Below are positions 909 to 31,191 of a DNA stretch of 36,738 nt, one piece after another (position 1 is the stretch's first letter; each line of letters opens with the position of its first letter). Location: positions 1 through 36,738 of the forward strand of contig CALXXK010000001.1 in the NCBI GenBank assembly GCA_944392675.1, written 5' to 3'. The stretch comes from an uncultured Clostridia bacterium. GTDB taxonomy: Bacteria > Bacillota > Clostridia > TANB77 > CAG-508. The notes under the pieces were generated by a model, which ran no database searches, was not told the DNA's origin, and saw only the letters and a program-made list of their open reading frames with translations. The translations under genes were made by a program, and so were the position numbers.

Positions 909-1317
909 GGGGACGTTCCTTTAATCCCTAAAATTCGGGATAATGGGGACGGACCTTTGCAAAATTACCCTTTGGGGACTTATCCATAAAAGAATTTTAG
1001 ATTCTATAACATTTTTTACTATAAAAAACAAAGTATTATATATAAATTTTAATAATTATGAATACGAATGAAAGAATATTATAAATTCTTTAATTATCAA
1101 GTAGGAGAATCTCAAACTTGCTTTGAGAGGTGCCTGCTTGATAATTTTAGAATTTATTTGTTCTGTAATGTTAGCCGAGTAATTATTAAAATTTATATAT
1201 AATACTTTGTTTAAAATTTAAAGGATATTTATTAAAATTCCCTTTATGGATACGTCCCAAAAATGATAAAAGGTCCGTCCCCCTATCCCTAATTTTAGGG
1301 ATTAGAGGAACGTCCCC
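909..1317. repeat. Palindromic element A: 409-bp imperfect long hairpin with conserved ~50-nt terminal modules
   Basis: 909-958 is the near-exact reverse complement of 1269-1317. Further pairing: 975-999 with 1233-1258; a perfect 33 bp at 1026-1058 with 1180-1212; 1081-1089 with 1149-1157; 1092-1101 with 1137-1146. The apical hairpin is CTCAAA-cttgc-TTTGAG at 1111-1127. There is no ORF. Confidence 0.9.
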
Positions 1318-1321
1318 TTAA

Positions 1322-4300
1322 TTATTTAAGAACATATTTCTTTATTAATACTACACCTGCTGCAATTATTCCTAATATACTTAATCCAAGTATAACATAT
1401 CCTGTATAGTCTACTGATAAACCTGTTGCTGGAACTACATAGAATTCTTCTGCTTTATCATCATCATAGTCATGTGTTTCGTCATTTCCTGGTACATAGT
1501 TACCTGGAATTGTAATTAATGTAGATCCCCAAGTTTTACCTATTTGCATTACTTCTGCATGGTTTTCTACTCTATCACCTTCATTATTTGTCATGTCTCT
1601 AACACCTATCATATCAAAAGTTGCTATATTTTGATCTTCTAATGCACTTAATGCTGAGTCTTTTAATTCTTCGATTCCTACAACTTTATTTGTAAGTGTA
1701 AGCGTTTCTTGTAATTCTGGTGCTAATAATCCGTCTGTTATTAATTCTGCTTTTTCAGCCTCACTCTTTATATGCCAATTATTTTCGTCTATACCTAAGT
1801 CATTGTCTGTATAGTCTATAATTATTTCTGGTGTTAACCTTGCTACGTCATCTTTATTTTCATGTCCTTCTCCATATAAATAGAATTCCTTCGTCGAGTA
1901 ATCTACCTCAGATATATTTGTTACTTTAAATTCGTATATTACTGTTATTCTTACTGATTTTACTAATTCGTCATCTATTTCTATTTTTACTTCATCTTCA
2001 TTTTGTTCTGATTTTGGTATATAAACAATATATTTAGGATGATTTGTTATTGTTCCATTTTCATCTATATCTGCTTCTGATAAAGTCATTCCATTTGCAA
2101 GTTTTACTGTTATTTTCTTAATTCTCTTTTCAAGCATTAATCCTTGTCTTGATCTTTCGATGATACCAAAATCTACACTATTTATTATATTTCTGTATTC
2201 TGGTTTTTTAACTGCATATCCATTTTCTATTATGATATTTCCATTTGCGTCTTCCTCGTATTGATCCATATCTGGAGTATCTGGAGTATATTCTACATCT
2301 ACCATAAATTCTGGTGTATATGAATCCATTTTTGTTATTACTTTTTCTGAATCTGCAATTTCGTTACCATATGATTGATTTATTTGTTGTTTTTTGCCAT
2401 ATGTCATTGTTTCTGTTTCTTTATCCACATTTTGTCTCATTTCAAAATCATCAACTGCATCTGATACTCTTATTTCTGTATTTGAACTTTCATCCCATTC
2501 TACTCCTGGATACATTTGCTTAAATGGATCTTTGTACCATTCTGTTTCTCTTGAAGCTCCTTTATTTTCAAATGAGCTTTTATCAACTATTGTACTCTTG
2601 TAATCTTGAACTCTATATTTGTCATCTCCCCATTCGTATTGAACTATATAGTAATCAGGGACATATCCAACAAATGAATATTCTCCTTCTGATGATGTTG
2701 TAGTTACTGCATCTACCCATTGAGTTCCATTATACATTCTAGCAACAGTTCCATCTGTTTTTAATAGTGTTACTTTTACTCCTGCTATTCCTGGTTCATT
2801 GCTATCTAATCTTCCATTTCCTTGTCTTACTCTTCCTGTTTTTAATTCTTCAGTTTCTGTATCTTTATCTTCAAAGACTTTACCATACATTTCTCTTCTA
2901 TCTTGTAATACTAGTCTAAATCCTGGTGCTCTATCTGTATCGTCTTCATAAGTATCTGTATTTCCAGGTGTTGCATTTTCTGGTGCTGAATCTGTATCTA
3001 CACCTGCATATAGCTGACCATTACTATCAGTTGTAGTATATGATGCAACTTCTGCTACATTTTCTAAGTTTTCTCTATTATTTACTGCATTTTCTATAGC
3101 TTGTTTATTTAATCCAAATTGTATATATATTTCGGTCTGCATTTGTGGAGCTACCTCACTATTTGCTGTCACTATTACCTTTTTATATTCTGAATTATAT
3201 GATTGTTCTGCTGAGCATGTTAAGTTTCCTGTAATATGTCCACTTTCATCTACTCCTGTACCTGCTCCGATTAAATAATAATTAGTGTCAAAATAATCTA
3301 CTATTGTATTAATTTTTGTTGTAAGGTTTGTTGATTGATTTTTTAGTGTTATTTTGTATGTTACTCTTGCATTTAATTCTCCATCTTTATTTGCTTGATC
3401 TACTTTATAATAGAAATCCTCTTCATATACAGGTCTTGAATATGTCATATCTGAATATTTTTCTTTAAAGCTTACTCCAACTTTAAATTCATTATCATAT
3501 TCATCAGTACCTTTTATTGCTTCTTCTTCACTATCTATAAGACTTGATTTTTGTCCATATCTATATACATTGTCAAATCCATTTATCTCTACTATTGCAT
3601 TTTCTACGTCTTTTACCAATGCCATGTCTGGATGTTCTCTTTCAATAATTCCGAAATTTACATTTTCTATTTCATCATATCTTGGATTATATCCATCAGT
3701 TAAACTGTATACACCATTTGTTGACCCTACTACATGGTATTTATCTTGTGCATATATTTCATTTGGACTATAAATTATTTCACTCTTATGATCTCCCGTA
3801 TTGTATTCTACATCTGAAGAATTTGTTATTGTATTATATCTTTGATTTAAACTATCTCTTGATGATTTTATATCTTCTGCTTTTGAACCATCATCAAGTT
3901 CTGGATGTGGTGTAACTGAGTGATATTTCATTCCATTATATTCAAATTCTATTTCATATTCTTCTATATGTTGGGCTTCTATTTTTAAATCATCTCTTGT
4001 TCCCCAGAATTTATATTTGCCTTCTTCTAGTTTTGTACCTCTACTATCTGAACCTGAATATATTTCACATATAATTTGTCCTTTTCTTTTTAATGTGATT
4101 TTTACTCCATCTACACCTTCTCCTGGAGAATATAAGTCATCACCAACCCATTGTTTTCCTTCTCTTTCATCTACATAAACTACTCCTTCGATATCCACAA
4201 ATGTTCTTTCATTTTCTATAATTCTTTCTCCAGATGTTTGTAGTCCTCCTCCTGATACTTCAAATCCAGAACCTATTTCTTTTTCTGATACATCTTGATC

Positions 4301-6601
4301 TCCGATACGTACATTAAAGTATACATTTTCGCTTCCTACTTCGTATAAAGTATATGTTCCTGGTTCTGTAATACTAGGATCATCTAATGTCATCGTAATC
4401 GTACCATCTTTTAATGAGATTCCTTCTCCAACATATTGACTTTGTGACTTTTTATAATAATCATTATATTTTTTCCATTTTTCCCATTCTTTATGATCTT
4501 TATTATATTGTTCAGTATCATGTTTTCTTCTACTTCTTCGTTCTGTTGTATAATAAATATTTCCATCTTCATCTACATGTTTTACTCTAACTGTATAATA
4601 TTCTGTATAGTAATAATCATCATAATCTGGTTCTGGTTTATATTTAGTATACTCTTCATTGTCCGGATCCCAATTCTTAATTGCGAATTTCATTCCCTCT
4701 AATGGTACATTATCTGTATCAGCAATAACTTTTATAACTCCATCTCCTGGTGGCGTTGGTTCTTCTGGTTCGTCTGGTTTATCTTTCTTTTTATTTTCAA
4801 ATACTACTTCTACTGTTTTCTTATCTCCTGATGTCAATACCACTTTTTGTGGATTATTTGTTGATAATTCATAGTTTGTAGGTGCTTTTGTTTCTTTTAC
4901 ATAGTATGTTCCTGGTTCTAATCCTTTTATAGTTAATGTTCCTGTTGAATTTGTAGTTCCTGTTTCTACTACATCAGTACATGCTACATCTTTACAAATT
5001 ATGAATTCTGCTCCCTTTAATCCTACTGTTGTTCCTTCTGCATATTTTTTAATTATTAATTGTGTATCTTGTGATTCATTATATATTACTCTTGCATTTA
5101 ATTGCTCATTCCATTGTGCCCAATATGCATCTTGAAGTACTGTTGGCATATCTACAACTGTTTTTCCTGTTTTTCTTAACATTCTTCTATACATATTGTT
5201 CAATTTTTCCATAGCTTGACTTTTGCTATCCATTTCTAAAACACTATAGCCTTTTTCGTCTATTAAATATTGTAATACAAATGTAATTAGATTATATTTA
5301 TTTGTAAATTTCTCTGCATCAGAATTTGCTCCGTTTGTCATAATAGTATCATAATATCCACTATTATCTATATCTTTTATAATATTTTTCACATCTGTAC
5401 TATCAGGTCCATAATTTACACCTGCTAATACATACACCAGAGTACTTATATAATCTTTTAATTGTTTACTTCCTGTTAAATTTTCATAATATTTATTGTT
5501 ATTCGTGTATGTTATACTTTTTACAACATCATATCGGTATTTGTCACCTACTGTTACATTAGGAATTGTTCCTTGTATTTTATATCCATCTGGCGTTTCT
5601 TTTTCTATAATTTGGAATACATCACCATCTTTTAGTCCTGCTATTTCAACAGTACCATTTGCATTTGTTGTAAATACCTTAGCTGAACTTGCACTTTTTG
5701 TATATGTAACTGTACTACCACTTGATTTGATATAATATCCATTATTAGGTGAACCTACCTTTTTTAATACAAATTTTGCTCCTTTTAAAGGTTTTTGAGT
5801 ATCTGCGTCCATTTTTACTAATTTTATACTTTTTCTTTTTGTTTTATAACTAGTAAATACTATTCTATCTTGTCCTGCAGCAGATCTTAAAATTATAATA
5901 CGAACATCTTTGTCATCTTTTGCTGCTGATGCTGCTTTTGAATTACATGCATCCCAAAATGTTTTATTTTTCTCATAATATCCATCGTAATCATTTGCTG
6001 GATACCATATTTTGTATTCTCCATAATGGCTTGTTGAATAATGCCATAACCATCCTTTTGTATCATGATTCCAATAATACCATACAAGCATGTCTCTACC
6101 TTGTCCTGATTTTCCTCCTATTGAAAATTGAGTTACATAATTTTTAACAAAATATGCCATTGTATTAAATCTTTTCATTCCACTTGTATCTGATGATGGT
6201 ACATTAACTATTGTGTTTCTAAATGCTCCTATTTGTGCTGTTCCATCTGCATAAACATCTATTATATTTTTTATTTCAAATCTATCTTGACTTGCATTTG
6301 CGTGGCTATTAATACAGTTCCAATTATAATTTGGATATATAACATCACCTGTAAGTGAGTTACTAGAACCTGTTCCATATTTTATTAATGCATTTTGTAC
6401 ATTTATATTCATAAATTTTTCAGGATCATTTTTAGCCCATTCGTATAGCTCTGTTACTGTTTTGGGTAAAGTTTTATCTTTATTGGCCGCATTTATTTCA
6501 TCTTGTGTTGGTTGATATGCTGCTAAAGAAGGTTTATTGAAAACCACAAATAACATAAATACAAATATTAAACTAATTAGAATTTTTATTGATGTTTTCA
6601 T
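1322..6601 (-). CDS. Giant cell-wall-anchored adhesin (1759 aa). It has a signal peptide, a Cys-containing thioester-like N-domain, SpaA/Cna-B-type domains, an SdrD-B-like domain, DUF11-like modules and a VPATG sorting signal.
   Basis: N-terminal signal peptide (MKTSIKILISLIFVFMLFVVFNKPSLAA). Cna-B/SpaA signatures include KGAKFVLKK..TTNANGTVEIAGLKDGDVFQIIEKETPDGY and LKGAEFIICK..TNSTGTLTIKGLEPGTYYVKETKAPTNY. The SdrD-B-like stretch is IEGVVYVDEREG..GVDGVKITL. The C-terminus is VPATG plus a hydrophobic stretch plus KKYVLK (1325-1435). The ATG lies 1 nt after the stop of the upstream gene, with AAGGAGG inside that gene's end. It is a paralog of 11927-15931. Confidence 0.85.
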   Translation of the reverse strand: MKTSIKILISLIFVFMLFVVFNKPSLAAYQPTQDEINAANKDKTLPKTVTELYEWAKNDPEKFMNINVQNALIKYGTGSSNSLTGDVIYPNYNWNCINSHANASQDRFEIKNIIDVYADGTAQIGAFRNTIVNVPSSDTSGMKRFNTMAYFVKNYVTQFSIGGKSGQGRDMLVWYYWNHDTKGWLWHYSTSHYGEYKIWYPANDYDGYYEKNKTFWDACNSKAASAAKDDKDVRIIILRSAAGQDRIVFTSYKTKRKSIKLVKMDADTQKPLKGAKFVLKKVGSPNNGYYIKSSGSTVTYTKSASSAKVFTTNANGTVEIAGLKDGDVFQIIEKETPDGYKIQGTIPNVTVGDKYRYDVVKSITYTNNNKYYENLTGSKQLKDYISTLVYVLAGVNYGPDSTDVKNIIKDIDNSGYYDTIMTNGANSDAEKFTNKYNLITFVLQYLIDEKGYSVLEMDSKSQAMEKLNNMYRRMLRKTGKTVVDMPTVLQDAYWAQWNEQLNARVIYNESQDTQLIIKKYAEGTTVGLKGAEFIICKDVACTDVVETGTTNSTGTLTIKGLEPGTYYVKETKAPTNYELSTNNPQKVVLTSGDKKTVEVVFENKKKDKPDEPEEPTPPGDGVIKVIADTDNVPLEGMKFAIKNWDPDNEEYTKYKPEPDYDDYYYTEYYTVRVKHVDEDGNIYYTTERRSRRKHDTEQYNKDHKEWEKWKKYNDYYKKSQSQYVGEGISLKDGTITMTLDDPSITEPGTYTLYEVGSENVYFNVRIGDQDVSEKEIGSGFEVSGGGLQTSGERIIENERTFVDIEGVVYVDEREGKQWVGDDLYSPGEGVDGVKITLKRKGQIICEIYSGSDSRGTKLEEGKYKFWGTRDDLKIEAQHIEEYEIEFEYNGMKYHSVTPHPELDDGSKAEDIKSSRDSLNQRYNTITNSSDVEYNTGDHKSEIIYSPNEIYAQDKYHVVGSTNGVYSLTDGYNPRYDEIENVNFGIIEREHPDMALVKDVENAIVEINGFDNVYRYGQKSSLIDSEEEAIKGTDEYDNEFKVGVSFKEKYSDMTYSRPVYEEDFYYKVDQANKDGELNARVTYKITLKNQSTNLTTKINTIVDYFDTNYYLIGAGTGVDESGHITGNLTCSAEQSYNSEYKKVIVTANSEVAPQMQTEIYIQFGLNKQAIENAVNNRENLENVAEVASYTTTDSNGQLYAGVDTDSAPENATPGNTDTYEDDTDRAPGFRLVLQDRREMYGKVFEDKDTETEELKTGRVRQGNGRLDSNEPGIAGVKVTLLKTDGTVARMYNGTQWVDAVTTTSSEGEYSFVGYVPDYYIVQYEWGDDKYRVQDYKSTIVDKSSFENKGASRETEWYKDPFKQMYPGVEWDESSNTEIRVSDAVDDFEMRQNVDKETETMTYGKKQQINQSYGNEIADSEKVITKMDSYTPEFMVDVEYTPDTPDMDQYEEDANGNIIIENGYAVKKPEYRNIINSVDFGIIERSRQGLMLEKRIKKITVKLANGMTLSEADIDENGTITNHPKYIVYIPKSEQNEDEVKIEIDDELVKSVRITVIYEFKVTNISEVDYSTKEFYLYGEGHENKDDVARLTPEIIIDYTDNDLGIDENNWHIKSEAEKAELITDGLLAPELQETLTLTNKVVGIEELKDSALSALEDQNIATFDMIGVRDMTNNEGDRVENHAEVMQIGKTWGSTLITIPGNYVPGNDETHDYDDDKAEEFYVVPATGLSVDYTGYVILGLSILGIIAAGVVLIKKYVLK

Positions 6602-6602
6602 T

Positions 6603-9600
6603 TTAAACCTCCTTTCTTCTTTTGATGTAAATTATTCCTCCAACAATCATCAATATCACTATTAATGATAAGCTAATTGCTAATACTACTTTACCTGTAC
6701 TTATTGAAATTATTACTTCTGCTTTGCCCATGTCATCTTCTGTTTCTACATTGTTTCCATATGTTGAGTCTATATCGGCAATATTTAAGTCATTGCTTGC
6801 TTTTGCAATTTCAGCTTTATTTATACTATTCCCCAAATTATTTTCATTCATTGTTTTTGTTAATACTAATTTTATTGTCTGAGTTTCCCCAGGATTTATT
6901 GTTGTGTTTGTTAAGCTACTATTATGTAATTCCCCTTCTCTTGTTAAATACCAATCTGGATTTGATTTTTCATCAAATTGTAAATCATTTGGTATATAAT
7001 CTACTATTTCATTTACTTGTCCTGGAATTTCTCCTTCATTAGTTATTTTTAAATCATATTCTATTGTTACTACTGTTCCTGCCAATTCTTTTGCTTTTAA
7101 TTCCACTTTTGCTAATGTTGCATCATTATACTCTGTTACTGTTTTTGATTTACTATTTTGTACAGTTATTCTATTTATAGTTTTCTTTAATGATAAGTCA
7201 AAAATATTTTTCTCATAAAATCCTGCATCTATATTTCTAATTTCTAAATTACTTATTGTTATTTCATTTGTTATCGCTATTTCTTTATCTTGTCCATTTA
7301 TATTTACAACTTTAGATATAACATCAGAATTTGTTGATGCATCTGTATTTTGTACTTGATATTGTGTTACTGTATATTTATTTGTATCATACTCAAATCC
7401 TACCATATATGAATTTCCTGTTAAATTATCAAATTTATAGAATCCATTTTGATCTGTAGTAGTTTGTATTGTAGCTCCATTTTCATCTGTTGCTAATTGT
7501 CCTGTAGCTCCATCAAATAGCAATACTGTCATTCCACTCATTACTGATGAATCATCTCTTATACCATTCTTATTACTGTCTATCCATGCTATTCCACTTA
7601 GGGCTTTAAGTCTTTGACTTGGATTACTTGGATTTTCATTTATACCATCTTGCAATTTATATGTTATTACATTTGACTCTGTATAATAATCTCCACCCAT
7701 TGCTGAAATAACATTTTCAAATTGTTCTAAATCATATAAATTTTCTCCTACTACTGCATTTATTACTAAATCTATTTCTGAATATGCTCCTAATAAATAA
7801 TTAGCGCTTAAATATCCTTCTCCTGTATCACTATCTTTCTCATATTGAGCATCTGCTATTCTTTCTCCATCTTTCATTAAATAAGCTTCTGTTACATTTA
7901 ATATTGATGATACATTGTCTTCTATCAATAAATCTGCTTCTATATTAGATGTATTTCTTATATTAGCTACAAATTGAATTTCGTCACCTTCTTTAACAGA
8001 TTCTCCATCTATACTTGCTGTTTGTACAATTTCAAAATTTGCAATTCTATTAACGTCAGATTTTGATATTACATTTGAGTAATATTGATTTCCATTTATT
8101 GTAGCATTACATGAGAAATCATATGTTTTCTCTGTTTCACCATTGCCTATAGGTTCAACATATAAGTCTAAAACAAGTGTTAATGTCTCTTCAGGATCAA
8201 GTTTCTTTATATTAATTTTAATATTATTATCTGTAAATTCTTCATATGTGTAATTATCTCCATTTACTCTGTATTCATCTCTTAATGTTACTCCATCTGT
8301 TAATGATAAATTTAAAGTTATATTTTCTAATGTATTTTCAGAAATATTAGTAATATTATATGTAAATGAATTTTCAGAACCTGCAGAAAATATTACTTCT
8401 TCATTTTTTGAATATTTTGTTGTTAATTTTAGCTCTGCATCTTTTATTTTATTTTGCATAATATCTTTTGAAAGTTCAAAATCATCAGCTTTCATTTCCA
8501 ATTTTCCTATAGTTACTTCATTTTCATTTTTTGCTTTATTAATAGTAAATTCATATTCAAATTCTACAGTTTCACCATTTGTTAATACATCTTTTTTAAA
8601 TCCTTTTTCTGTTAAAGTTTCATCTTCTTCATAATTTGTAACTATTACTGGATTTCCTGTAACCGCATCTGGAACTTGCTCTTTTTTCATATTGAAAAAT
8701 GTAACATTATTATTTCCATCAGCATCTTGTTGTTTTCCTACTACAGAAAAATTAGTTAAATCCTTTCCTGTATTATTTGTTAATGTTATTATATGTTTTA
8801 CTGTTTGTCCTTCAAAAATTTCTTCTCCATCTTGTAATTCTTTTCCTCCAGAAATTGTTGTTATTTTTAAATCTATTCCTTCTACATTTTCTTCAATACT
8901 TAATGGTGATATTTGACTATTTTCTCCATCTCCTATTAATTTTAATGTTGTATAGTCCTCAAATTCTTGATTATTATATTCATATTGTAATCTTGTTATT
9001 TGGAAATATGTTTCATCATTTTGAACATTTTCTGGTATTTCAATTTTATAACTAACATTTATTACTTCTGATGGTCTTAATGTTGGTATCGATATTTTAA
9101 ACATTTTTACTTGTGACAAATCTTCTACATTTTCATACCATTGTTCACTATCAATTGATATGTTTTCTGTTGCATATAATACTTTTGCATCTGGATAATT
9201 TGTTTGTATTTGTCCTAATAATTTTGTTTGAATTGTTGATTTAAATTCATCACTTTCGTTTGTGGTATCTATTTTTCCTACTATAATTACATTATTTATA
9301 TCTGTTTCATAATTATTTATTACTGCTGTAGTAACATTTGCTTCTTTTCTTTGGGCATTTGTATCTAATTTACCTGTAACTGCCTTTTGTGATAATGTTT
9401 CTATTTGCTCGCTTTGTTCATTATATCCATTCATCATTCCATACATTAAAACACCATATTTAGAATTCATTTTTATATCTGCATTTACTGTATTTTCTTC
9501 ATTGTTTCTATTTTCATTTGTATATTTTAAAGTTATAACAGAATTTTTTGTAGGTGTTAATTTATTAAGTGTGATATTTGCGCTTATGATTATTTGTATT

Positions 9601-11447
9601 CCTTGATTTACACTATTCTTAAATTCTTTTTGCTCTCCTCTTAGTTGCATTTCTATCTTTTTCTCTGCTTTATTGTATTGAACTCTCTCTACCTCCATCT
9701 CGTCAGCATACATTTTTTGTATAGATTTTACTTCTATATTTTCTACTTCATCTGGTAGTTTTATTTCTACATACGGATTTTTATATAAATCATATTTATT
9801 ACTATCTGACTTTAATGTAGCTATAATTTGAATATTTTCGTTTTTTTGTAATGTAGAAAAATTAGTATTATTTACTTCAAGTTTTGCTTCTGAAACTGTA
9901 TCTAATAAATTCATATATGAACTTATAGATAGATAATCTTTTAATTTTAGTAGTGTTTCACTTTGCAATTTTGATATGTTCTTAAGGACTTCTTTACCAT
10001 ATCCTGTATCTGATTTTATTGCTTTTTCTAATATAATTTGTATGTTTCCTTGAGTTACTGGCTTACTTAAAATAATTTTTATGTTTTCTATATTATTTAT
10101 TTGTACATTTATATTTCCTGCTTCATCTTCTTGAGAATTTCTATCAATAGTTGATATTGTATTGTTTCCGTAGTCTATTATTGATATATTTGATTCTTGT
10201 CCTAAAATTTCTAATATTTGATTTTTATTAAATTTAATATTTTTATAATATGTACTATTATTTGTAGATAGTTCTTTATTATCATTTGTTATAAATGAAT
10301 TTTTTCCTGTTTCTACTTCTATATTTGAAATATTATCTATGTCTGATATTTCTATGTCTAATTTTTCTTGATATGTTGTTTCATTTCCTACATTTGCATA
10401 TAGATAACCTTTATAATTACTTTCTGTCATTTGTTTTTGTAGTGTAATTATTTCTCCTAATTCTTTTAATTCTACTTCTTTAGTATCTTGTTTTTGTATT
10501 AATTCTTTTGTATATACTCCTAATTCTAATTTTGTATCTAAATTTACTTTATTATTTTCTATACTATTATCATAATTATAAATTATCTTGTATTCGTCTT
10601 TTCCCGTTCCCCAAATAATATTATTTCCTTCTAATTCTATATTTTTTGTTATAATTATTTCTCCATTATTTTCATCATATGAGTAACTATTTTCATTTAG
10701 TTTCTTGCCATTATTTAATACTGCTACTATTTTCATTCCATTGTCTTTATCAGGTACTTTTATAGTTATTTTTTCATTTTTTATTGGTAATATATTATTT
10801 ACTACTTCTACATCTATTCTTTGTTGTAATAATGTTTTTCCATTATCCATTACAAAGTATTTTTCTATATCTTGAGAAAAATTAGTCTCCACATTTTCAG
10901 ACCATATTCCAGCTACTTTTATTTCGCCTTTTACATGTTTTACATCTTGCTCGTCATATTGATATTCTCCTTCTAGTGTTATTGATGTTTGTCTATCAAA
11001 ATAATCTGATGCAATTTTGTCATTTTTCTCAAATTTTATTGGAATATCTAGTTCTACTTGATTTCCATATATTACTTGATTTAAATATATTTTATTATCT
11101 TCAACAGATTTCACATATTTATTGTTTATTTTGTCTTTTGCAATAGTAAAATTCGGATTATTTATTACTATTACTGCATTATTTAGTGAACCTGTATCTC
11201 TTATATTTAAATTAATATACAGATTATCTCCATTTAAAATTGACATAGTTTTGCTATGTTTATTATTACCATTTTCTTTGAAATAGGCATTAAATTCAAT
11301 ATTAGTATCACTTATTCTATATTCTTGATTTTCTAAATTTTCGTATATAGCAATTGATAGCCCTCTACCAACTTCAAAAAAGTTAATGCTTATCATTGCA
11401 AACATTAAACCAATACTAATTATTGTCCTTAATATCCTTCGTCTCAT
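6603..11447 (-). CDS. Giant cell-wall-anchored repeat protein (1614 aa). It has an N-terminal TM/signal, many beta-sandwich (DUF11/CARDB-like) modules, a C-terminal SdrD-B-like domain and an SISTG sorting signal.
   Basis: RBS GGGAGG lies 8 nt upstream of the ATG. DUF11-like signatures include GQTVKHIITLTNNTGKDLTNFSVVG and VKEGDEIQFVANIRNTSNIEADLLIEDNV. The SdrD-B-like stretch is LSGIAWIDSNKNGIRDD..GMTVLLFD..TDQNGFYKFDNLTGNSYMVGFEY. The tail is SISTG plus a hydrophobic stretch plus KRRKEV (6606-6707). It is co-linear and homologous with 15953-20839. Confidence 0.85.
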   Translation of the reverse strand: MRRRILRTIISIGLMFAMISINFFEVGRGLSIAIYENLENQEYRISDTNIEFNAYFKENGNNKHSKTMSILNGDNLYINLNIRDTGSLNNAVIVINNPNFTIAKDKINNKYVKSVEDNKIYLNQVIYGNQVELDIPIKFEKNDKIASDYFDRQTSITLEGEYQYDEQDVKHVKGEIKVAGIWSENVETNFSQDIEKYFVMDNGKTLLQQRIDVEVVNNILPIKNEKITIKVPDKDNGMKIVAVLNNGKKLNENSYSYDENNGEIIITKNIELEGNNIIWGTGKDEYKIIYNYDNSIENNKVNLDTKLELGVYTKELIQKQDTKEVELKELGEIITLQKQMTESNYKGYLYANVGNETTYQEKLDIEISDIDNISNIEVETGKNSFITNDNKELSTNNSTYYKNIKFNKNQILEILGQESNISIIDYGNNTISTIDRNSQEDEAGNINVQINNIENIKIILSKPVTQGNIQIILEKAIKSDTGYGKEVLKNISKLQSETLLKLKDYLSISSYMNLLDTVSEAKLEVNNTNFSTLQKNENIQIIATLKSDSNKYDLYKNPYVEIKLPDEVENIEVKSIQKMYADEMEVERVQYNKAEKKIEMQLRGEQKEFKNSVNQGIQIIISANITLNKLTPTKNSVITLKYTNENRNNEENTVNADIKMNSKYGVLMYGMMNGYNEQSEQIETLSQKAVTGKLDTNAQRKEANVTTAVINNYETDINNVIIVGKIDTTNESDEFKSTIQTKLLGQIQTNYPDAKVLYATENISIDSEQWYENVEDLSQVKMFKISIPTLRPSEVINVSYKIEIPENVQNDETYFQITRLQYEYNNQEFEDYTTLKLIGDGENSQISPLSIEENVEGIDLKITTISGGKELQDGEEIFEGQTVKHIITLTNNTGKDLTNFSVVGKQQDADGNNNVTFFNMKKEQVPDAVTGNPVIVTNYEEDETLTEKGFKKDVLTNGETVEFEYEFTINKAKNENEVTIGKLEMKADDFELSKDIMQNKIKDAELKLTTKYSKNEEVIFSAGSENSFTYNITNISENTLENITLNLSLTDGVTLRDEYRVNGDNYTYEEFTDNNIKINIKKLDPEETLTLVLDLYVEPIGNGETEKTYDFSCNATINGNQYYSNVISKSDVNRIANFEIVQTASIDGESVKEGDEIQFVANIRNTSNIEADLLIEDNVSSILNVTEAYLMKDGERIADAQYEKDSDTGEGYLSANYLLGAYSEIDLVINAVVGENLYDLEQFENVISAMGGDYYTESNVITYKLQDGINENPSNPSQRLKALSGIAWIDSNKNGIRDDSSVMSGMTVLLFDGATGQLATDENGATIQTTTDQNGFYKFDNLTGNSYMVGFEYDTNKYTVTQYQVQNTDASTNSDVISKVVNINGQDKEIAITNEITISNLEIRNIDAGFYEKNIFDLSLKKTINRITVQNSKSKTVTEYNDATLAKVELKAKELAGTVVTIEYDLKITNEGEIPGQVNEIVDYIPNDLQFDEKSNPDWYLTREGELHNSSLTNTTINPGETQTIKLVLTKTMNENNLGNSINKAEIAKASNDLNIADIDSTYGNNVETEDDMGKAEVIISISTGKVVLAISLSLIVILMIVGGIIYIKRRKEV

Positions 11448-11822
11448 ATGCTTTTCCTCCCTTAATTTACTATATTTATAGTAGAATATTTATACTTATT
11501 TATCAATGGTATTTTTTTGCAAGAATTTATGTTTATCTACGGATAGGGATTTTTAGCTATTTTTTACGTTTTTTTAATAATTTTGTTACACTATTGTTAC
11601 ATTTTTTATTTAACCTTCTATTATTTATTTTTTTATTGTATACATTCTTTGTATTCCTTAAATCCGTTAGCTTTAAAAGCTTTTTTTCAGTTCATAACTT
11701 AGACTAACCCCTGTTATCTGAAAATATATAATTAGATTGTAATATAAGAAACAATAGCGACATGATTTAAATGCTCTATTATTTTAGTTAATTAACATGT
11801 CGCATCTTTGTTCGCGCGCCAA

Positions 11823-11850
11823 ATTTTACGTAATTAAAATCTGTGTACAA
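11823..11850 (-). promoter_or_regulatory. Candidate sigma-A-type promoter for the 11447-1322 bicistron
   Basis: The minus strand reads TTGTAC-16 nt-TAAAAT (-35 at 11845-11850, -10 at 11823-11828). It lies just downstream of the 11891-11919 terminator. If real, the leader is about 370 nt. AT-rich DNA produces such matches by chance. Confidence 0.3.
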
Positions 11851-11890
11851 CTATTTTAATTATAGGATATATAATTCCATATAATTAAAT

Positions 11891-11919
11891 AAAACTGTTG
11901 ACTTTTAATCAACAGTTTT
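11891..11919 (-). terminator. Rho-independent terminator candidate after CDS 11927-15931
   Basis: AAAACTGTTGA-cttttaa-TCAACAGTTTT is an 11-bp perfect stem starting 8 nt past the stop codon. It is followed on the minus strand by a T/A-rich tail (ATTTAATTAT). Confidence 0.55.
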
Positions 11920-11926
11920 ATTTATG

Positions 11927-15931: not shown

Positions 15932-15952
15932 TAAAATTTACCTCCTTTCTTC

Positions 15953-18900: not shown

Positions 18901-20839
18901 ATTCCATTATTATTGGTTTTGTTGCAGTAGCTGATTTTTTATTTACAATAATATCTGCATTTATAATTATTGTTGCTCCTTCTATTGATTGTTCTTTATA
19001 TTGTGTTTGTTTACCTGCTAATGTTATTGTCAAAACTCTTCCATTTACTGTATAATTTTGTATTGCTAATTCATTTTCATAAACTAAATCTACACTATTT
19101 ATTCTTATTTCTTCTACTTCTTCTGGTAAATTGATATTTATTGTTGGATTTTCATATAAATTAAATTCTTCACTATTTGTACTTAATATAGCTTTCATTT
19201 CAATATTGTTTTCAACTACTGTAGATAAAGTATCTTTATTTACTTCTAATCTAGCTGATGTTTTTGTTTCATTTAGAACTATTTCTGAAGTAGCTTGTGT
19301 TTGTATACCTAATGAATATCTAACTCCATTTGTTACATTTAAATTATATTCTGCTATTGCTGTTGTTTGTATTTTGTTAACATTTCTTAATAAATTTACG
19401 TCATTTTGTTTTATTGTTTTTTCATTATTGAAATCTATTGTACCTTCTTTTATAGGTGTTGATGTTCTTATTTCTATATTTCTTGCTTCTACATTTGAAT
19501 ATTCAATAACTATATTTCCATTTTCATCAGGTGTTGTTGATGAATCTACTCTTGCTATTCTTTGTCCATCTTGATTTATTATTTCTATAACTCCACTTTT
19601 TCCAAAAATTTCATCAAAGCTTTGTTTACTAAAAGATGTTTTTGTATATATTACATTTGCATCTTGTAATATATTTTCATTTGTTACAAAATTATTTTGT
19701 TCTTTTACACTTATATATTCTGCTGTATTAGCTAAATTTACTACTAATTTTGTAGTTGTATTATAATTTCTATCTATACCAGAATATAATTTTCCTTTAA
19801 ACATTTGTTGTTCATTATTTTGTGTTGATATAGCTATTGTTGTATCTTTTTCTTCATTATTTAATGTGATTTTTGTATCATTTGCTTTAATTTCTTTGTC
19901 ATTATATAATGTTAAAGTTTCTTGTGATGTTATTTCTATATCACTTAAATCTATATCTTTTTCATATATATATGTTAATATGATATTTTCATTTCCAGAT
20001 TTTTTCCAATTAATTTTATTGTCTTGTGTCAATTCATTTGAAAATTGAAATTCTATATATCCTTCTTCATTTTTATATTCATATGATGTCATATTGTTTA
20101 GGTTAACAACTTGAACAACTTCTGGTTGTTCTTTTTCTATTTCTGGAATATTAATTTTTGAATTTATGTTTTTTATTGGATAATTATTATTTTTTAATCC
20201 TAAATTTAATGAAAATTGTATAATTCTTTTTTCTTCTCCATTAAATTTCATGACTTTATTTGTAATTATATCTATGCTATTTTCTATATTTTCTGGTGCA
20301 TCTACTTCAATTAATTTTAAGTTCACTTCTCTACTTGAATCTATTGTTATATTTCTTTCTGTACTATCTTTGTATTCACCAGTTAATGTTATTTTACTAT
20401 TCATGTTTAATAAACCTGTATCTATTTTATCTTCCATTACAGGTTTTATTTTTAAATCAATTTCTGCATTTGTTCCTGCATTTAATTGATTTAAATATAT
20501 CTTATTTCCTTCGATTCTATTTACATACTGATTTTCCGTTCCTACTAATGTAAAGTTACTATTTGATAGTTCCACTTGTCCGTTGAAATATCCATCTTTT
20601 TTAACATTTACATTTATGTATAATATCTGTTCTTGTTCTTCTGATGTAACCTCTAAGGAATTTGTATTTTTTCCTTCTTCATCTTTAAAGTACGCATTAA
20701 ATTCTATATTAGCATGGTTTGTAGCTAATATGTCTGCAGCATAACTTATAAAAGTTGAACCAACTAAAATAAAATTGGCAATTGTCATTGTTAATATTAA
20801 TGCTACTACTATACTAATTTTTAGAAGTTTGTTTTTCAT
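15953..20839 (-). CDS. Giant cell-wall-anchored repeat protein (about 1628 aa). It has an N-terminal TM/signal, DUF11-like modules, an SdrD-B-like domain and an SIKTG sorting signal.
   Basis: The track ORF starts at 20863, but AAAGGAGG lies 7-8 nt upstream of the ATG at 20837-20839 (MKNKLLKISIVVALIL...), so that start is preferred. DUF11 signatures include VKNGEVIKYHIEIANTGSEEVQNAVVTGQIPEGTTLV and VKAGDIIEYTIVVNNSSESRAENVVLKDTIPEQLTI. The SdrD-B-like stretch is ISGLAWFDENANGIKDD..NVKVKLL..TNAQGMYVLDNIANGQYIVIFEY. The tail is SIKTG plus a hydrophobic stretch plus RKKNN... (15956-16072). Confidence 0.85.
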   Translation of the reverse strand: MKNKLLKISIVVALILTMTIANFILVGSTFISYAADILATNHANIEFNAYFKDEEGKNTNSLEVTSEEQEQILYINVNVKKDGYFNGQVELSNSNFTLVGTENQYVNRIEGNKIYLNQLNAGTNAEIDLKIKPVMEDKIDTGLLNMNSKITLTGEYKDSTERNITIDSSREVNLKLIEVDAPENIENSIDIITNKVMKFNGEEKRIIQFSLNLGLKNNNYPIKNINSKINIPEIEKEQPEVVQVVNLNNMTSYEYKNEEGYIEFQFSNELTQDNKINWKKSGNENIILTYIYEKDIDLSDIEITSQETLTLYNDKEIKANDTKITLNNEEKDTTIAISTQNNEQQMFKGKLYSGIDRNYNTTTKLVVNLANTAEYISVKEQNNFVTNENILQDANVIYTKTSFSKQSFDEIFGKSGVIEIINQDGQRIARVDSSTTPDENGNIVIEYSNVEARNIEIRTSTPIKEGTIDFNNEKTIKQNDVNLLRNVNKIQTTAIAEYNLNVTNGVRYSLGIQTQATSEIVLNETKTSARLEVNKDTLSTVVENNIEMKAILSTNSEEFNLYENPTININLPEEVEEIRINSVDLVYENELAIQNYTVNGRVLTITLAGKQTQYKEQSIEGATIIINADIIVNKKSATATKPIIMEYINREEVGTASKDIQIVAPTDVTAINSIKDLGIETVGQEKTQTISMGKGEDGKQLEVELEIINNNPEPINNMKVLGTFPTDSESNNLGAKLATRINMENATIYYSDNENATNDLQNTENGWTQDATQNSKKYLIEYNNNLEPQQSIVGTYSIKVPENLEYNQKATEGYDVSYTNSATNVSNTIESTDIEMDTGVGPKIETTLSATIGNENVTSDTKVKNGEVIKYHIEIANTGSEEVQNAVVTGQIPEGTTLVEPEPNYEYTGSSYYKEIETDKFAKTIEKIAVGEKAIVEYEVRVNSDTAENTTLTNSIETKYGEAINDSNEVQTTTEKGNLRVSVKRVTDRSINLYGNGAVQYYAIIENISDAKQENVKVETNISDNLQVEKLTLHTGMGSQEVSDDEIIADGTEGVFNPEDEIQKENVNENMQSEEMQYAQEVNIGSLEPGEVKVLSYSMDISTTKNNEAKLYVIAKDEASKEYKSNVWTDNISNYNITMSMTSNTQSSYVKAGDIIEYTIVVNNSSESRAENVVLKDTIPEQLTITNVTVDGQPVEGIETNQVEIRLSIMANGSCEVKIQTIVNEADDREEAEAISNKAYVEIAGETMAGTDTINHIIEETQSGDSNNNTGNDENNDNNTENNDIAQGSRMISGLAWFDENANGIKDDNEKTLDNVKVKLLNTQTNNLVKDKSGKTLETTTNAQGMYVLDNIANGQYIVIFEYNTSQYAVTKYKVEGADETKNSDAMTTELNIEGNTKQVTGTDIITMNNNNISDIDIGLIELKTFDLKLEKYVNKIILQNSAGTTVKEFNNEKLAKVEIDAKQLKGTTVIIEYKINVKNEGEVEGYARKIADYLPNDLQFSSEMNKDWYQQDGVLYNSSIANDKIAAGETKTLTLTLTKTMTENNTGRVNNTAEIAEAYNELGVGDINSTPGNKVQGENDMDYADVILSIKTGGVVYVGIAIIIVVMLSIVALVVIRKKNNIKIDEI

Positions 20840-21057
20840 TTTTATTCCTCCTTTAAAAAACATTTAAAATTAATATTTCCTTTATATAATATAAATTTTT
20901 TATAAAAAAATCAATTATTAATATTAATGTATTTTTTTATCATTTTTTGTTGTTTTACGGCTTTACACATTGCATATATAGATGATTTATATTACATTTT
21001 TATAACATTTTTGTAATAATTTGTAATATTCCTTATTTGCATAAAACACCTATCTAT

Positions 21058-22158: not shown

Positions 22159-22165
22159 CTTATTT

Positions 22166-22786: not shown

Positions 22787-22827
22787 CCTTCTTTCTTTTT
22801 TGTATTACTAGAAAATTTAATTATTAT

Positions 22828-22926
22828 AACTTACTCTTAGTAGTATTTGATAAATTTTTAAGTTTCTTTGAAAATTATATTGAAAGATAAACTTAGAAAT
22901 TTATCAAATACTACTAAGCATAAGTT
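22828..22926. repeat. About 99-nt near-continuous hairpin between PBP2 and minC
   Basis: A perfect 22-bp inverted repeat pairs CTTAGTAGTATTTGATAAATTT (22836-22857) with AAATTTATCAAATACTACTAAG (22897-22918). It extends outward (22828-22833 with 22921-26) and inward (22859-22865 with 22889-22895; 22866-22869 with 22883-22886). No U-tract follows on the minus strand. Confidence 0.8.
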
Positions 22927-22937
22927 AAACTATTAAT

Positions 22938-26444: not shown

Positions 26445-26513
26445 TGTAGTAATTGAAATTGTCCATTTTTATATTTTCTTTTTAATGTATTAACAAATTG
26501 AGTTCACTTTAAT

Positions 26514-27545: not shown

Positions 27546-27568
27546 CTTATCTTTTCCTTTCTTTTTAA

Positions 27569-28288: not shown

Positions 28289-28331
28289 ATAAATCCCTTC
28301 CTTTCTTTTTTTATTTGCCCCTATTTTTTTC

Positions 28332-28589: not shown

Positions 28590-28841
28590 ATTTTTACCTC
28601 CAATATTGTTCCGTCTTACGGGTATTTATTTTTTCACATAAGTATTATATATTGATTTAACATTTTTTTCAAGTAAATTTTGGTATTTTCTTCAATTAAG
28701 CAATTAAAAAGTTGAATTAATCTTTTATTTATGATATATTTAAAAAAGTTAATTATTTTTATTACCAAAAATTGTGCATTTAAATATAATAATATTAGTA
28801 GTATAATATAATTAGTACTTTTTTAGGAGGAATTTCTTTAT

Positions 28842-29477
28842 ATGAAGATTGAAAAATTAACTGAAAATAAAATTCGTGTTATCATCAATGATGAAGATTT
28901 AAAGCAAAATCATACAGATTTACATACAATAATGACAAAATCCTTAGAAAATCAGGGATTATTTTTAAACATACTATCAAAAGCAGAAAAGGAAGTAGGT
29001 TTTTATACTGAAAATTGTAAACTTCTTATCGAAGCATTTTCTACTCCTGATGATATGTTTGTTTTTACTATTACTAAATATAATGAAACTGACTTTAAAG
29101 ACATTTTACCAAATACTCCCAAAAAATTAACAGTTAAAAGGAAATCCGTAAATATTAATAATTCAAATTCTATTTATAAATTTGATAGTTTTGATGAATT
29201 TTGCAATTTCTGTAATTGTATAAATAACAAAAATCAATTTGAAATAAATAAATTATCAAAACATATTTCTTTATATTTATATAATGATACATATTATTTG
29301 ATACTTTCAAATATTAATATAAATTATAAAAATATAAAAATATTTTATAATACAATATCAGAATTTGGAAAATTTGTTTCAAACTCTAACACTTTTAAAA
29401 CCAAACTGATAGAACATGGAAATAGTATTATTAAAAAGAATGCAATTTCTATAGGAATAAAATATTTTTCAGAATAA
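28842..29477 (+). CDS. mecA: Adaptor protein MecA-like
   Basis: The N-terminus, MKIEKLTENKIRVIINDEDLKQNHTDLHTIM, resembles the MecA N-domain (MEIERINE..V.F......L..R). The size is about 210 aa. An AGGAGG is present upstream. Confidence 0.6.
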   Translation: MKIEKLTENKIRVIINDEDLKQNHTDLHTIMTKSLENQGLFLNILSKAEKEVGFYTENCKLLIEAFSTPDDMFVFTITKYNETDFKDILPNTPKKLTVKRKSVNINNSNSIYKFDSFDEFCNFCNCINNKNQFEINKLSKHISLYLYNDTYYLILSNININYKNIKIFYNTISEFGKFVSNSNTFKTKLIEHGNSIIKKNAISIGIKYFSE

Positions 29478-29540
29478 ATTTTTATATAAATTAAATTTTA
29501 ATAAAACTAAAAATAACTTAAATTTATTTTAAATAATCAT

Positions 29541-29605
29541 GGAGGGTATCCATTTTAACTCATTTCTACTTTTTAGGATATAGTTCAAAATAGATTCCCT
29601 CTTTT
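29541..29605 (+). terminator. Terminator candidate downstream of mecA
   Basis: GGAGGGTATCCATTTT (29541-29556) pairs with AAAATAGATTCCCTC (29587-29601), 13 of 15 positions. TTTT follows. The loop is large, about 30 nt. Confidence 0.4.
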
Positions 29606-29618
29606 CATTATTCAATAA

Positions 29619-29646
29619 AATCCAGATTATCTATAAAATCTGGATT
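29619..29646. terminator. Bidirectional terminator candidate between mecA and the M23 peptidase gene
   Basis: AATCCAGATT-atctataa-AATCTGGATT is a 10-bp perfect stem. T-rich sequence follows on both strands. Confidence 0.5.
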
Positions 29647-29673
29647 CTTATTTTACACATTTTTTATAATTTT

Positions 29674-30693
29674 TTAATATAAATAATTTTGTGGATTATA
29701 TGCTACTCCATTTACTCTTATTTCTAAATGTAAATGTGGACCTGTAGAATTTCCTGTTGATCCAACTGCCGCTATAGTTTGTCCTTGTGATACACTAGCA
29801 CCAGCTGAAACATATAATTTACTACAATGAGCATAATATGTTTGAACATTATTTCCATGTGATATTACTATCATATTTCCATAAGATCCTTTATATCCAG
29901 AAAAAGTTACTGTTCCTGATGCAGCAGCTGCAATTGGAGTTCCTGCTGATGTTGCTATATCTAATCCAGTATGTGAAGATCTTCTTATTGCACTTCCAAC
30001 CCCAAATTTTGATGTAATAATACCTGAAACTGGTCTTATCAAACTAATTCCTAAATTCGCTTTTCCTCCTGATGTTTTACTTGAAGTATTAACAGATCCT
30101 GTTGCTTTATATGTATTAGTTTTTGAACTTCTAGTACTTGCTACCGTTACTTTAACTGGCTCTACATATAATTTAGCTATTGCTTCATCAGAAGATACAA
30201 AATCTTTCATTTCTGTTTCATATTTTTCTGCTATTGATAAATTATTTATATTTGTACTACCTTTTTCTTTAAGTGTATCTATTACTTTTTGAGCTTCTTC
30301 AAAACTAGAAACATAGTACTTCTCTTGTCCATTATCTAATATAGAATAATATCTATAATATTCTATACCTTGTTCCTTTACCTTATTAAATATTTCATCA
30401 TCATTTGTTACTACATCCTTTTTTAATAAACATAACTTATATTCAGGAAGATTTTCTACTTGGACAAATGCTGTGTTATTATTTTCTCCATCTCCGTGTT
30501 CTACAAAAGTATTAATTTTATGTTGTAGTTCTGTTCTATTTTCTGTATATCCTACTTGCTCTCCTTCTATATAAACACTATATGTTGGTTTATATAAAAA
30601 AGCTATTGCTCCAATTATTAAAAAAATTGCAATTACTAAAAGAATAAACATTTTTATTCCTTTTTTTGTATGTACCATTAATTTTTTTAACAT
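29674..30693 (-). CDS. M23 (LytM) family peptidoglycan metalloendopeptidase, membrane anchored
   Basis: It has an N-terminal TM helix. Catalytic motifs are HTGLDIA, YGNMIVISHGNNVQTYYAH and GSTGNSTGPHLHLEIRVNG. RBS AAGGAG lies 8 nt upstream. Confidence 0.85.
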   Translation of the reverse strand: MLKKLMVHTKKGIKMFILLVIAIFLIIGAIAFLYKPTYSVYIEGEQVGYTENRTELQHKINTFVEHGDGENNNTAFVQVENLPEYKLCLLKKDVVTNDDEIFNKVKEQGIEYYRYYSILDNGQEKYYVSSFEEAQKVIDTLKEKGSTNINNLSIAEKYETEMKDFVSSDEAIAKLYVEPVKVTVASTRSSKTNTYKATGSVNTSSKTSGGKANLGISLIRPVSGIITSKFGVGSAIRRSSHTGLDIATSAGTPIAAAASGTVTFSGYKGSYGNMIVISHGNNVQTYYAHCSKLYVSAGASVSQGQTIAAVGSTGNSTGPHLHLEIRVNGVAYNPQNYLY

Positions 30694-30830
30694 TACAATA
30701 TCTCCTTTGTATATGATATTGTAATATTATTGTAATTTTTATAAAATTGCAAAGATTATGAATTGCTAATTTCCGTAAGATTTTTTGTTTTTTCTTCGTT
30801 ATTCTTTATTTTTTATGTTTTTTCTTTATT

Positions 30831-31191
30831 TTAGGGGACGTTCCTTCAATCCCGAAAATTAGGGAACAAAGGGACGGACCTTCCAGATTTCATTAAGCTT
30901 CTTCCCATCAGGTTCCCCCTATTTATCATCAAATATTTGATTTTGAATGTGATTGAAATAATTTTAGAAATTCTTTATTAATTTTTTGGAAAATGTTCGC
31001 GTCGAGCTTTAGCTCGGACTAAGTGAAAGGGTGCCAAAAAATTAATTTAGAATTTTTTAAATTATGTATTGAACCGAAAAATCACATATTTGATGATAAA
31101 TAGGGGGAACCTGATGGGAAGAAGCTTAATGAAATCTGGAAGGTCCGTCCCTTTGTTCCCTAATTTTCGGGATTGAAGGAACGTCCCCTAA
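30831..31191. repeat. Palindromic element B: 361-bp element with 106-bp perfect inverted arms and the same ~50-nt terminal modules as element A
   Basis: 30831-30936 is the exact reverse complement of 31086-31191. Inner pairing includes 30977-30989 with 31034-31046. The apical hairpin is CGAGC-ttta-GCTCG at 31003-31016. There is no ORF. Confidence 0.95.

Follow-up and report, generated by a model that had tools for sequence, protein, structure and literature searches.

Palindromic repeats of the REP (repetitive extragenic palindromic) and REPIN type are well studied in Proteobacteria and poorly described in the A+T-rich Firmicutes of the gut, which are known mostly from metagenome-assembled genomes (MAGs). 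REP sequences, bacterial interspersed mosaic elements (BIMEs) and REPINs are associated with a Y1 transposase termed RAYT or TnpA_REP (PMC3116915, PMC2817692, PMC3333891). REP and REPIN sequences carry a conserved GTAG tetranucleotide 5' of the foot of the hairpin (PMC3333891), and palindromic repeats of the REP kind also serve as targets of insertion sequences (IS; PMC1525189). The present work concerns two long hairpin elements, E1 (908-1318) and E2 (30833-31189), in the window, by which we mean the whole 36,738-nt stretch of DNA analysed (contig CALXXK010000001.1 of an uncultured Clostridia bacterium). E1 and E2 probably belong to one mosaic family of DNA palindromes, non-coding and either selfish or neutral, that resembles REP sequences, BIMEs and REPINs and also miniature inverted-repeat transposable elements, or MITEs. 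Each element is built in two layers: a lineage-specific palindromic shell, and a cargo from a separate palindromic family that can exist and insert alone. The shells are resident at fixed intergenic sites, where they are pressed against stop codons; their interiors differ between close relatives, and the two arms of an element change in concert.

A dispersed module at the ends of genes

The original prediction, made from the letters of the window, described four copies of a 50-nt module as the inverted termini of two long hairpins, and all four are present (Table 1). Boxes of the GGGACG type (GGGACGTTCCTT, with at most two mismatches) number eight in the window against 0.25 expected, and exact GGGGACG occurs six times against 0.09 expected, always within E1 or E2. 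Each element folds into a single long hairpin, with an energy of -191.8 kcal/mol for E1 (z -18.9 against shuffled sequence) and -253.5 kcal/mol for E2 (z -33.1), and the outer arms of E2 are perfectly complementary over at least 102 nt. The apical hairpins and GGTGCC hexamers described in both interiors lie where they had been placed, and the extra box reported beside the left end of E1 is real: 12 nt (AGAGGAGGGGAC) stand there twice in tandem. At the right end of a related element, L058 of the scan given below, the junction is duplicated as a mirror image of this, with GTCCCC and 7 nt of flank present two times. Two further statements did not survive: the mini-palindrome of the copy at 1269-1317 is not perfect (1286-1305 has an asymmetric central AA/TT, and the last base differs), and E1 and E2 do share sequence beyond the 50 nt, their interiors being 79% identical over 43 nt (1055-1097 against 30940-30982), with conserved AAATTCT and AGAATTT blocks.

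When an exact pattern was scanned against one genome per species, the module was found at no fewer than 82 loci (labelled L001 onward) among the matches listed, all in four uncultured Clostridia or Clostridium MAGs. The genes that flank the elements in the window are 88-92% identical to those of the four MAGs, which makes the window a further member of the same genus-level group. At least 25 matches lie at true contig ends, as expected of a repeat that breaks assemblies. The shell module consists of GGGGACG words (boxA, GGGGACGTTCC; boxB, GGGGACGGACC) around a CCC-N-AAAATT-N-GGG mini-palindrome, and further GGGGACG-based boxes are boxC (GGGGACGGGCTATTTTG) and boxD (GGGGACGCGTCC). Elements follow a mosaic grammar that includes minimal palindromes of 46 nt (Aa; GGGGACGTTCCTTTAATCCCTAAAATTAGGGATTAAAGGAACGTCCCC), in which two outer half-sites are joined at the AAAATT spacer; solitary boxA-mini-palindrome-boxB modules (AB); doublets of about 110 nt; elements of 200-500 nt; and nested or tandem arrays (AAB and ABAB; ABABbaba in L052). 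About 36 doublets have the order ABba, with perfect outer runs of up to 121 nt. Half-modules terminate at the AAAATT spacer (L002, L042), whose polarity is fixed relative to boxA and boxB.

This architecture is closest to that of BIMEs. The expectation that the module is always an inverted terminus fails in the relatives, where solitary modules, minimal palindromes and tandem arrays are seen; the broader proposal of a REPIN- or MITE-like element is borne out, in that the module defines a multi-copy, intergenic, non-coding, hairpin-forming family of the REPIN, BIME and MITE type, and the interiors of the additional copies are also self-complementary. Nor does it belong to a named family: the window has no Rfam match at the gathering score (below threshold, only plant miRNA long-hairpin models appear), neither E1 nor E2 has a blastn match among phages and plasmids, no known IS matches the ends, and the literature found for the motif concerns only unrelated CRISPR repeats in which GGGGACG happens to occur. 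The three outcomes that would have overturned the original prediction (no other copies, ends of a known IS or prophage, additional interiors without self-complementarity) did not materialise.

The context of 54 elements could be resolved: 31 lie in tandem, 16 in convergent and 6 in divergent gene pairs, so that 53 of the 54 are intergenic, and the single within-gene match is a chance 10-mer only. The stop codon of the facing gene falls inside the element or at most 6 nt away at 50 of 108 boxA ends, whereas among 4620 intergenic positions drawn at random this is so for 102 (2%). Stops inside the element are concentrated at -1 (a TAG that uses the first G), at -15/-16 and at -23; these are the three reading frames, and the element thus supplies a stop in every frame. 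An nrnA-like protein takes its C-terminus (...GRSFNPEN) from the element next to its gene. Where two elements enclose a gene, it is a housekeeping gene (nrnA, rbfA, infB and that of a histidine kinase), and a solitary module (L009 2047-2092; orthologue L045 1845-1890) lies 5 nt past the infB stop, upstream of rbfA and within the conserved nusA-infB-rbfA-nrnA operon. Few copies occupy a divergent promoter region, and E2 is among them. Apposition to stop codons may mean that insertions are tolerated at the extreme 3' ends of genes, or that neutral spacer has been trimmed around a retained element; a targeting mechanism behind it is also conceivable.

Exchangeable interiors and matched arms

An all-against-all comparison of 28 long elements groups their interiors into family I (E2 type, nine copies), family II (E1 type, six full and four short copies), family III and some singletons. 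The E1 interior is matched with 99% BLAST coverage by L081, L065, L003, L051 and L058. The original prediction held that the interiors differ and yet keep their palindromy; the palindromy stands, but the divergence is not idiosyncratic, since E1 and E2 carry distinct multi-copy cores. In family I the core (about 160-190 nt, 95-99% conserved among the nine copies from sister MAGs) lies between hypervariable stem segments, V and V', each adjoining a conserved module.

What a site contains differs from strain to strain. At the E2 site the window has a family-I element (353 nt), CAMMNR (L036) a short family-II element (250 nt) and CAMMMI (L035) a bare 46-nt palindrome; ten assemblies with an identical 81-aa Coat_F neighbour divide into five with the family-I interior and five with the short family-II interior. 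The module at this site is the same 50-nt variant in both groups of strains, which places the junction of the exchange inside boxB. A further site has a different interior in each of L051, L052 and L058, even though L052 and L058 are 96-98% identical in its flanks, and interiors likewise differ at the orthologous sites L003 and L012, L008 and L065, and L055 and L057. Deletion between short direct repeats can account for short forms as derivatives of long ones; TATGAT, for example, flanks the core in L012, and a deletion there yields the inner element of L052. That E1 and E2 might bound a 30-kb island was considered and rejected: the E2 flank is syntenic in sister genomes, the two sites vary independently, and CALXAB has an orthologue of 1-890 without E1.

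The cargo is distributed separately from the shell. A scan of metagenome contigs with a 22-nt core-I apex sequence found the apex at 120 or more human-gut loci, in which core I forms part of a quasi-palindromic element, about 480-520 nt long, that has variable outer arms of its own; boxA and boxB occur in none of the 88 complete copies, and GGGGACG is at chance level in 971 kb of these loci. Window positions 30920-31081 are 83-86% identical to the module-less copies; the only detectable coding homology between the window and these metagenome loci is 65-75%. A core-I unit of about 245 nt, with 41-nt arms of its own and no module, lies at 3637-3880 of L036 in CAMMNR, and the orthologous site in the window, near 28705 (28700-28715), is an empty allele. 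The core unit is thus inserted DNA able to move apart from the shell; it has TTAAAAAA on both sides, and an extra target duplication of about 19 nt complicates the comparison of filled and empty sites. The idea that V arms are the halves of a split, pre-existing host hairpin is ruled out for this unit, the empty window site being without those arms.

Cores I and II appear to be distant relatives. A hidden Markov model (HMM) of core I matches all six full family-II elements, collinear on both sides of the apex, with weak E-values of 0.005-0.4 on the left and about 3.5 on the right, any match being found in 1 of 200 shuffles. Such kinship would explain the common polarity that had been suspected from the GGTGCC hexamers, which we ascribe to core homology; the orientation of cores against the gene strand (13 opposite, 5 same) is too weak a bias to use. 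The core apex is invariant, and its closing stem co-varies between subtypes.

Other observations concern the cores and the DNA around them. In viral contigs the scan gave no match to the module, one to core I and none to core II, the one being a lone core-I apex copy at L203 11998-12019 (IMG/VR UViG_3300045988_149678). An IS3-family IS of about 1.46 kb lies in the core-I palindromic element of several loci (L085 2800-4248; L103; L104; L121 4358-5806), with inverted repeats TGAAGTGAACCC... and ...GGGTTCAGTACA and a 3-bp duplication (CAC). It occupies exactly one position of the element, between GCGCTTTCAC and CACTCAGGCTC, in both orientations and in different assemblies, which is site-specific targeting of a palindromic repeat like that of IS1397 in REP sequences. 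In L129 (8877-11222) a core-I element separates the gene for a large serine recombinase (516 aa) from one for a polysaccharide deacetylase that seems to be truncated at its 5' end, and may be a case of gene interruption; at 100-240 of the same locus there is a different palindrome, with GGGGACGGAC directly after a stop codon.

The arms of these palindromes are matched with unusual precision. In the nine-copy family-I alignment 99.0% of cells are paired, and covariation of the arms, which the original prediction had recommended as a check, scores 0.300 against at most 0.058 with slid partners, a value reached by none of 500 shuffles. In the helix that contains V (helix 2; 99.7% of cells paired), both sides have changed in 32 of 45 pairs and one side only in none. 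Sequential compensation of the RNA type should leave G-U or mismatch intermediates; none is seen, which favours copying at the level of DNA over an RNA fold. Among 97 distinct core-I elements, arm mismatches are G.T in 595 and A.C in 627 cases, and such similar counts give no sign of one strand being folded and selected. At the E2 site the left arm reads AGGGAACAAAGGG, and the right arm, reverse-complemented, reads AGGGAGC... or AGGGGGC... according to the strain. L206 has AGGGGGC in both arms, and its relatives have AAC on the left and GGC or AGC on the right; the match in L206 indicates that two substitutions were transferred together, arm to arm. The original prediction had left a choice between a selected fold and a mechanism that regenerates palindromes, and the latter fits these data (mirrored changes, no strand bias) better than a selected RNA fold.

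We infer that one arm is copied from the other, by template switching or by hairpin heteroduplex repair or gene conversion between arms. Template switching makes quasipalindromes perfect by copying the nascent strand (PMC7202029). Arm identity would then be kept at the DNA level, when the palindrome extrudes as a hairpin during replication and is subject to quasipalindrome template switching or to correction of the hairpin heteroduplex. The outer arms of a metagenome core-I subtype are less strictly matched: among 29 distinct arm pairs, 8 are perfect and many combine two arm types. Some core-I elements, as in L088, L096 and further metagenome copies, join a left arm from one locus type to the right arm, or to the mirrored left region, of another. 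These hybrids are either products of recombination or inversion between dispersed copies or chimeras of assembly.

Interiors could be exchanged by the nesting of one palindrome inside another, or by ectopic gene conversion in which the 50-nt modules act as homology arms, possibly after hairpin breakage. For primary spread, recognition of the GGGGACG hairpin by an enzyme provided in trans would be required; the best guess, by analogy, is a Y1 HUH transposase of the RAYT or IS200 type (PMC3333891). Any effect at the level of the host, such as a hairpin at the 3' end of mRNA, would be secondary. A search by tblastn with IS200 TnpA, E. coli RAYT, XerD and Hin queries, confined to 540 kb of module-bearing loci, found one IS200 and two tyrosine recombinases without any link to the module; a RAYT or IS200-type gene linked to the module, which the original prediction had proposed to look for, was not found in the loci sampled. 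An autonomous element with module termini was not found in these loci or in viral contigs, phages and plasmids, and there is no recombinase gene among the neighbours of E1 or E2. The IS200-type element is itself 752 nt long (L001 4847-5598; CALXAB010000069.1), carries a minus-strand gene for a 168-aa Y1 TnpA and terminates in hairpins, ACCCCCTGTTTTACAGGGGGT and ACCACCAGTTTTACTGGTGGT. It is absent from CAMMMI at L075 1023/1024, where the flanks are 100% identical, and this filled/empty pair indicates that a Y1 transposase has recently been active in the lineage.

Several points weigh against a family of neutral or selfish palindromes that is spread and maintained in this manner. The only Y1 gene found belongs to the IS200 just described, the ends of which are unrelated to the module, and clustering of open reading frames (ORFs) of at least 80 aa from the 82 loci gave clusters of orthologues only and no multi-copy ORF family. 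The one comparison of a filled with an unfilled shell site (L051 with L052) does not show a clean insertion, and no clean target-site duplication was seen there or at the core-I unit of L036. The module and the cores are far more conserved than segment V, a pattern that calls either for every copy to be under selection or for all copies to descend from a small number of competent lineages; the similarity of core I across taxa, which exceeds that of coding DNA, hints at a function, or at horizontal spread, beyond what a neutral palindrome would have. The DNA used for comparison comes nearly all from short-read MAGs and metagenome contigs, in which palindromes and repeats assemble poorly, and core orientation and some of the hybrid arms could be artefacts of such assembly.

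Table 1. Features of E1 and E2 in the window.
Feature	Position	Strand	Description
Tandem duplication, left E1 junction	891-902 and 903-914	+	AGAGGAGGGGAC twice (12 nt), comprising 6 nt of flank and the first 6 nt of the element; read directly
E1 left shell module	908-957	+	boxA GGGGACGTTCC, mini-palindrome CCCTAAAATTCGGG, boxB GGGGACGGACC; same module at >=82 loci in 4 MAGs
E1 degenerate boxD	971-992	+	TTTGGGGACTTATCCATAAAAG; partner 1242-1264; palindrome GGGGACGCGTCC in other family-II copies (alignment)
E1 cargo, core II	1026-1212	+	perfect 33-bp inner arms 1026-1058 / 1180-1212, asymmetric centre; apical hairpin 1111-1127; GGTGCC 1129-1134
E1 right shell module	1269-1318	-	terminates 3 nt before stop codon 1322-1324 of the minus-strand gene for a 1759-aa surface protein
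E2 left shell module	30833-30882	+	variant CCCGAAAATTAGGGAACAAAGGGACGGACC; identical module at the orthologous site in strains with a different interior
E2 variable stem segment V, left arm	30883-30930	+	diverges fast between copies; each change mirrored in the right arm
E2 cargo, core I	30931-31092	+	conserved, asymmetric; promoter-like TTGAAT-N16-TAGAAA; apical hairpin 31003-31016; GGTGCC 31030-31035
E2 variable stem segment V'	31093-31139	-	exact complement of 30883-30930
E2 right shell module	31140-31189	-	E2 lies between divergent genes, that for an M23 peptidase (-) and a Coat_F-type operon (+)

The window has a G+C content of about 27% and chromosomal genes ordinary for Clostridia (mreBCD, minC, radC, pcrA, prfA and those for PBP2 and Coat_F); no tRNA or tmRNA gene is present in it. 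E2 is flanked by divergent genes, that for an M23 peptidase at 29674-30693 (-) and a Coat_F-type operon from 31241 (+). Next to E1, four successive giant genes occupy 1322-20863 (-) and encode proteins of 1759, 1614, 1334 and 1636 aa with C-terminal membrane anchors and SpaA, SdrD_B, DUF11 and CarboxypepD_reg domains; paralogous segments inside the genes are common to them, such as 2874-3067 and 13290-13483 (73% identity). An unrelated 44-nt inverted repeat (22822-22865 / 22889-22932, 89% complementary, 23-nt loop) lies between the minC-like and PBP2 genes.

Competing explanations

It is rather unlikely that the elements act as RNA, either as hairpins in 3' untranslated regions that end or stabilise transcripts or through cores that are small RNA genes, with palindromy selected via the RNA fold. 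The folds are certainly very strong (z -19 and -33), yet the hairpins are not followed by a U-tract, a terminator scan finds no site in E2 and one weak internal site in E1, and the flanks are without an A/T run. Shell ends lie at or within stop codons and the solitary module of the infB-rbfA operon is probably transcribed, but E2 and its orthologues are in a divergent promoter region and not at a 3' end. The cores combine a promoter-like TTGAAT-N16-TAGAAT with apical structure and a U-rich tail; promoter-like matches, however, are about as frequent as in shuffled sequence, and no Rfam family matches. An RNA role would also be in keeping with an invariant apex whose closing stem co-varies between subtypes, and with a core I that is more conserved across taxa than coding DNA. 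Against this, the V helix has neither one-sided nor G-U intermediates among its 32 co-varying pairs, and arm mismatches show no strand bias; both results are unusual for RNA compensation and expected of DNA copying.

The ends of the elements bear on a second explanation, namely that these are ordinary cut-and-paste MITEs, moved into TA by a DDE transposase of the IS630 or Tc1/mariner type, whose palindromy is that of long terminal inverted repeats. The flank logo at 157 ends is W-A immediately before GGGGACG: the preceding dinucleotide is TA at about 62% and AA at about 32% of ends, and the tetranucleotides include CTAG (32), TTAG (25), AAAG (23) and GTAG (6). Apposition to stop codons would follow from a target that is contained in TAA and TAG, and the stops that the element supplies in three frames would make insertions at gene ends tolerable. 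TA is common regardless, however, in a genome of only 27% G+C, and no clean empty site with a TA duplication was found; a Tn3-type 5-bp duplication at the GGGG ends is not present either. No autonomous partner was found in the 540 kb of loci or in the phage and plasmid collections, and the turnover of interiors at fixed shells and the copying from arm to arm are left unexplained, so that we consider this origin unlikely.

The presence of different interiors at the same site in close relatives would also be expected if the module were the site of a site-specific recombinase, a lox-like 13-8-13 arrangement (TTCCTTTAATCCC-TAAAATTA-GGGATTAAAGGAA) flanked by GGGGACG, and the interiors were cassettes exchanged or inverted in the manner of an inverton or of integron-like docking. 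Half-modules that break exactly at the AAAATT spacer, minimal palindromes that join two outer half-sites there, and the fixed polarity of the spacer are all in keeping with such a site, but the exchange junction at the E2 site is inside boxB and not at the spacer, and the left and right spacers are inverted, so that simple circle integration cannot yield the structure. A flipped core is never seen, either among strains (window, L205, L210) or among orthologues (L051, L058); no recombinase gene adjoins E1 or E2, and of tyrosine recombinases the loci have just two, a XerD homologue and one more, without a specific link to the elements. A recombinase site of this kind is improbable. The same may be said of a broader scheme, in which shells are docking sites of a hairpin-specific single-stranded DNA recombination system and cores are mobile non-coding genes, such as small RNAs, that undergo dispersed, integron-like exchange; one enzyme would insert cassettes at the apex of the extruded palindrome and regenerate perfect arms. 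The turnover of interiors at fixed sites in near-identical strains, the cross-taxon conservation of core I above that of coding DNA and the half-modules that break at AAAATT are compatible with that scheme.

An artefact of short-read metagenome assembly, with chimeric joins at repeats and spurious palindromes, would suit the many module matches at contig ends and the hybrid arms of metagenome copies, but it is hardly credible given that the same E2 sequence occurs in independent assemblies (window, L205, L210-213) and the alternative interior in five others, that arms and cores are consistent across at least nine copies, and that assemblers tend to break at such repeats and not to invent perfect inverted arms of 100 bp.

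Relation to known repeat families

Like REP sequences, BIMEs and REPINs, the elements are short, G+C-rich, imperfect extragenic palindromes in high copy number; they are met singly, in inverted pairs that form one hairpin when folded, and in mosaics whose linker motifs are conserved, the content of a locus varies between strains here as in E. coli, and positions that differ between copies stay complementary. The differences lie in the host (Firmicutes here, usually Proteobacteria), in a unit of 46-50 nt with repeated GGGGACG words around a mini-palindrome, in shell ends that abut or contain stop codons, and in a flank of W-A-G, only 6 of the 157 ends having GTAG; the 540 kb of loci searched yielded no RAYT. 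Enclosure of a second palindromic element, with a distribution of its own, brings the length of the elements to 350-500 nt. The resemblance to BIMEs is one of architecture only, the units being unrelated to the palindromic units of E. coli, and membership of the REPIN-RAYT system is not established.

With MITEs and modular repeats (Correia/NEMIS, RUP, BOX and ERIC; PMC3184786) the family shares a non-coding, multi-copy, intergenic nature, a length below 600 bp, terminal inverted repeats, deletion derivatives of varied length, and common ends with differing interiors. It differs from MITEs in that no autonomous IS with the same ends and no clear target-site duplication was found in the material searched, in the conservation of the core, which exceeds that of the subterminal stem (MITEs usually show the opposite), and in arms that are perfect over about 100 bp. 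Integron attC sites, which lie in cassette arrays beside an integrase, after cassette ORFs, and are recognised as folded single strands, likewise have conserved terminal boxes and a palindromic central part of variable length and sequence; the sites described here are dispersed among housekeeping genes with non-coding cargo, and neither an array nor an integrase is present in the window or the loci. The mobile G+C clusters of yeast mitochondria are palindromic, flanked by TAG or AG in a very A+T-rich genome, and form nests and arrays, but they belong to a eukaryotic organelle, are much shorter and have no enclosed conserved core. Invertons are set apart by the single orientation of the core in the window, L205, L210 and the orthologues L051 and L058, and by neighbours of E2 that include no invertase, and Rho-independent terminators by the lack of a U-tract after the hairpin.

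Quasipalindrome template switching would account for the mirrored multi-base change in L206 and for the lack of one-sided intermediates (PMC7202029). It is familiar from reporter genes as a mechanism of mutational hotspots, whereas the role proposed here is one of maintenance. To our knowledge, such switching has so far not been described as the mechanism by which a repeat family is maintained.

The family breaks assemblies, many contigs ending in its copies, and it marks the ends of genes; it is also a natural data set for arm-to-arm copying in long palindromes, and its two-layer build, a widespread, highly conserved core within a lineage-specific shell, is unusual. A dedicated enzyme that acts on the hairpin, or a function of the core, would turn the repeat family into a new mechanism of mobile DNA. 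At present it stands as a useful annotation and a lead, not as a new principle or a new kind of system: it is a relation of the known REP, BIME and MITE repeats that is distinct from each of these families in its GGGGACG grammar, its size, its apposition to stop codons, its shell-plus-core structure and the conservation of its core in taxa that have no shell.

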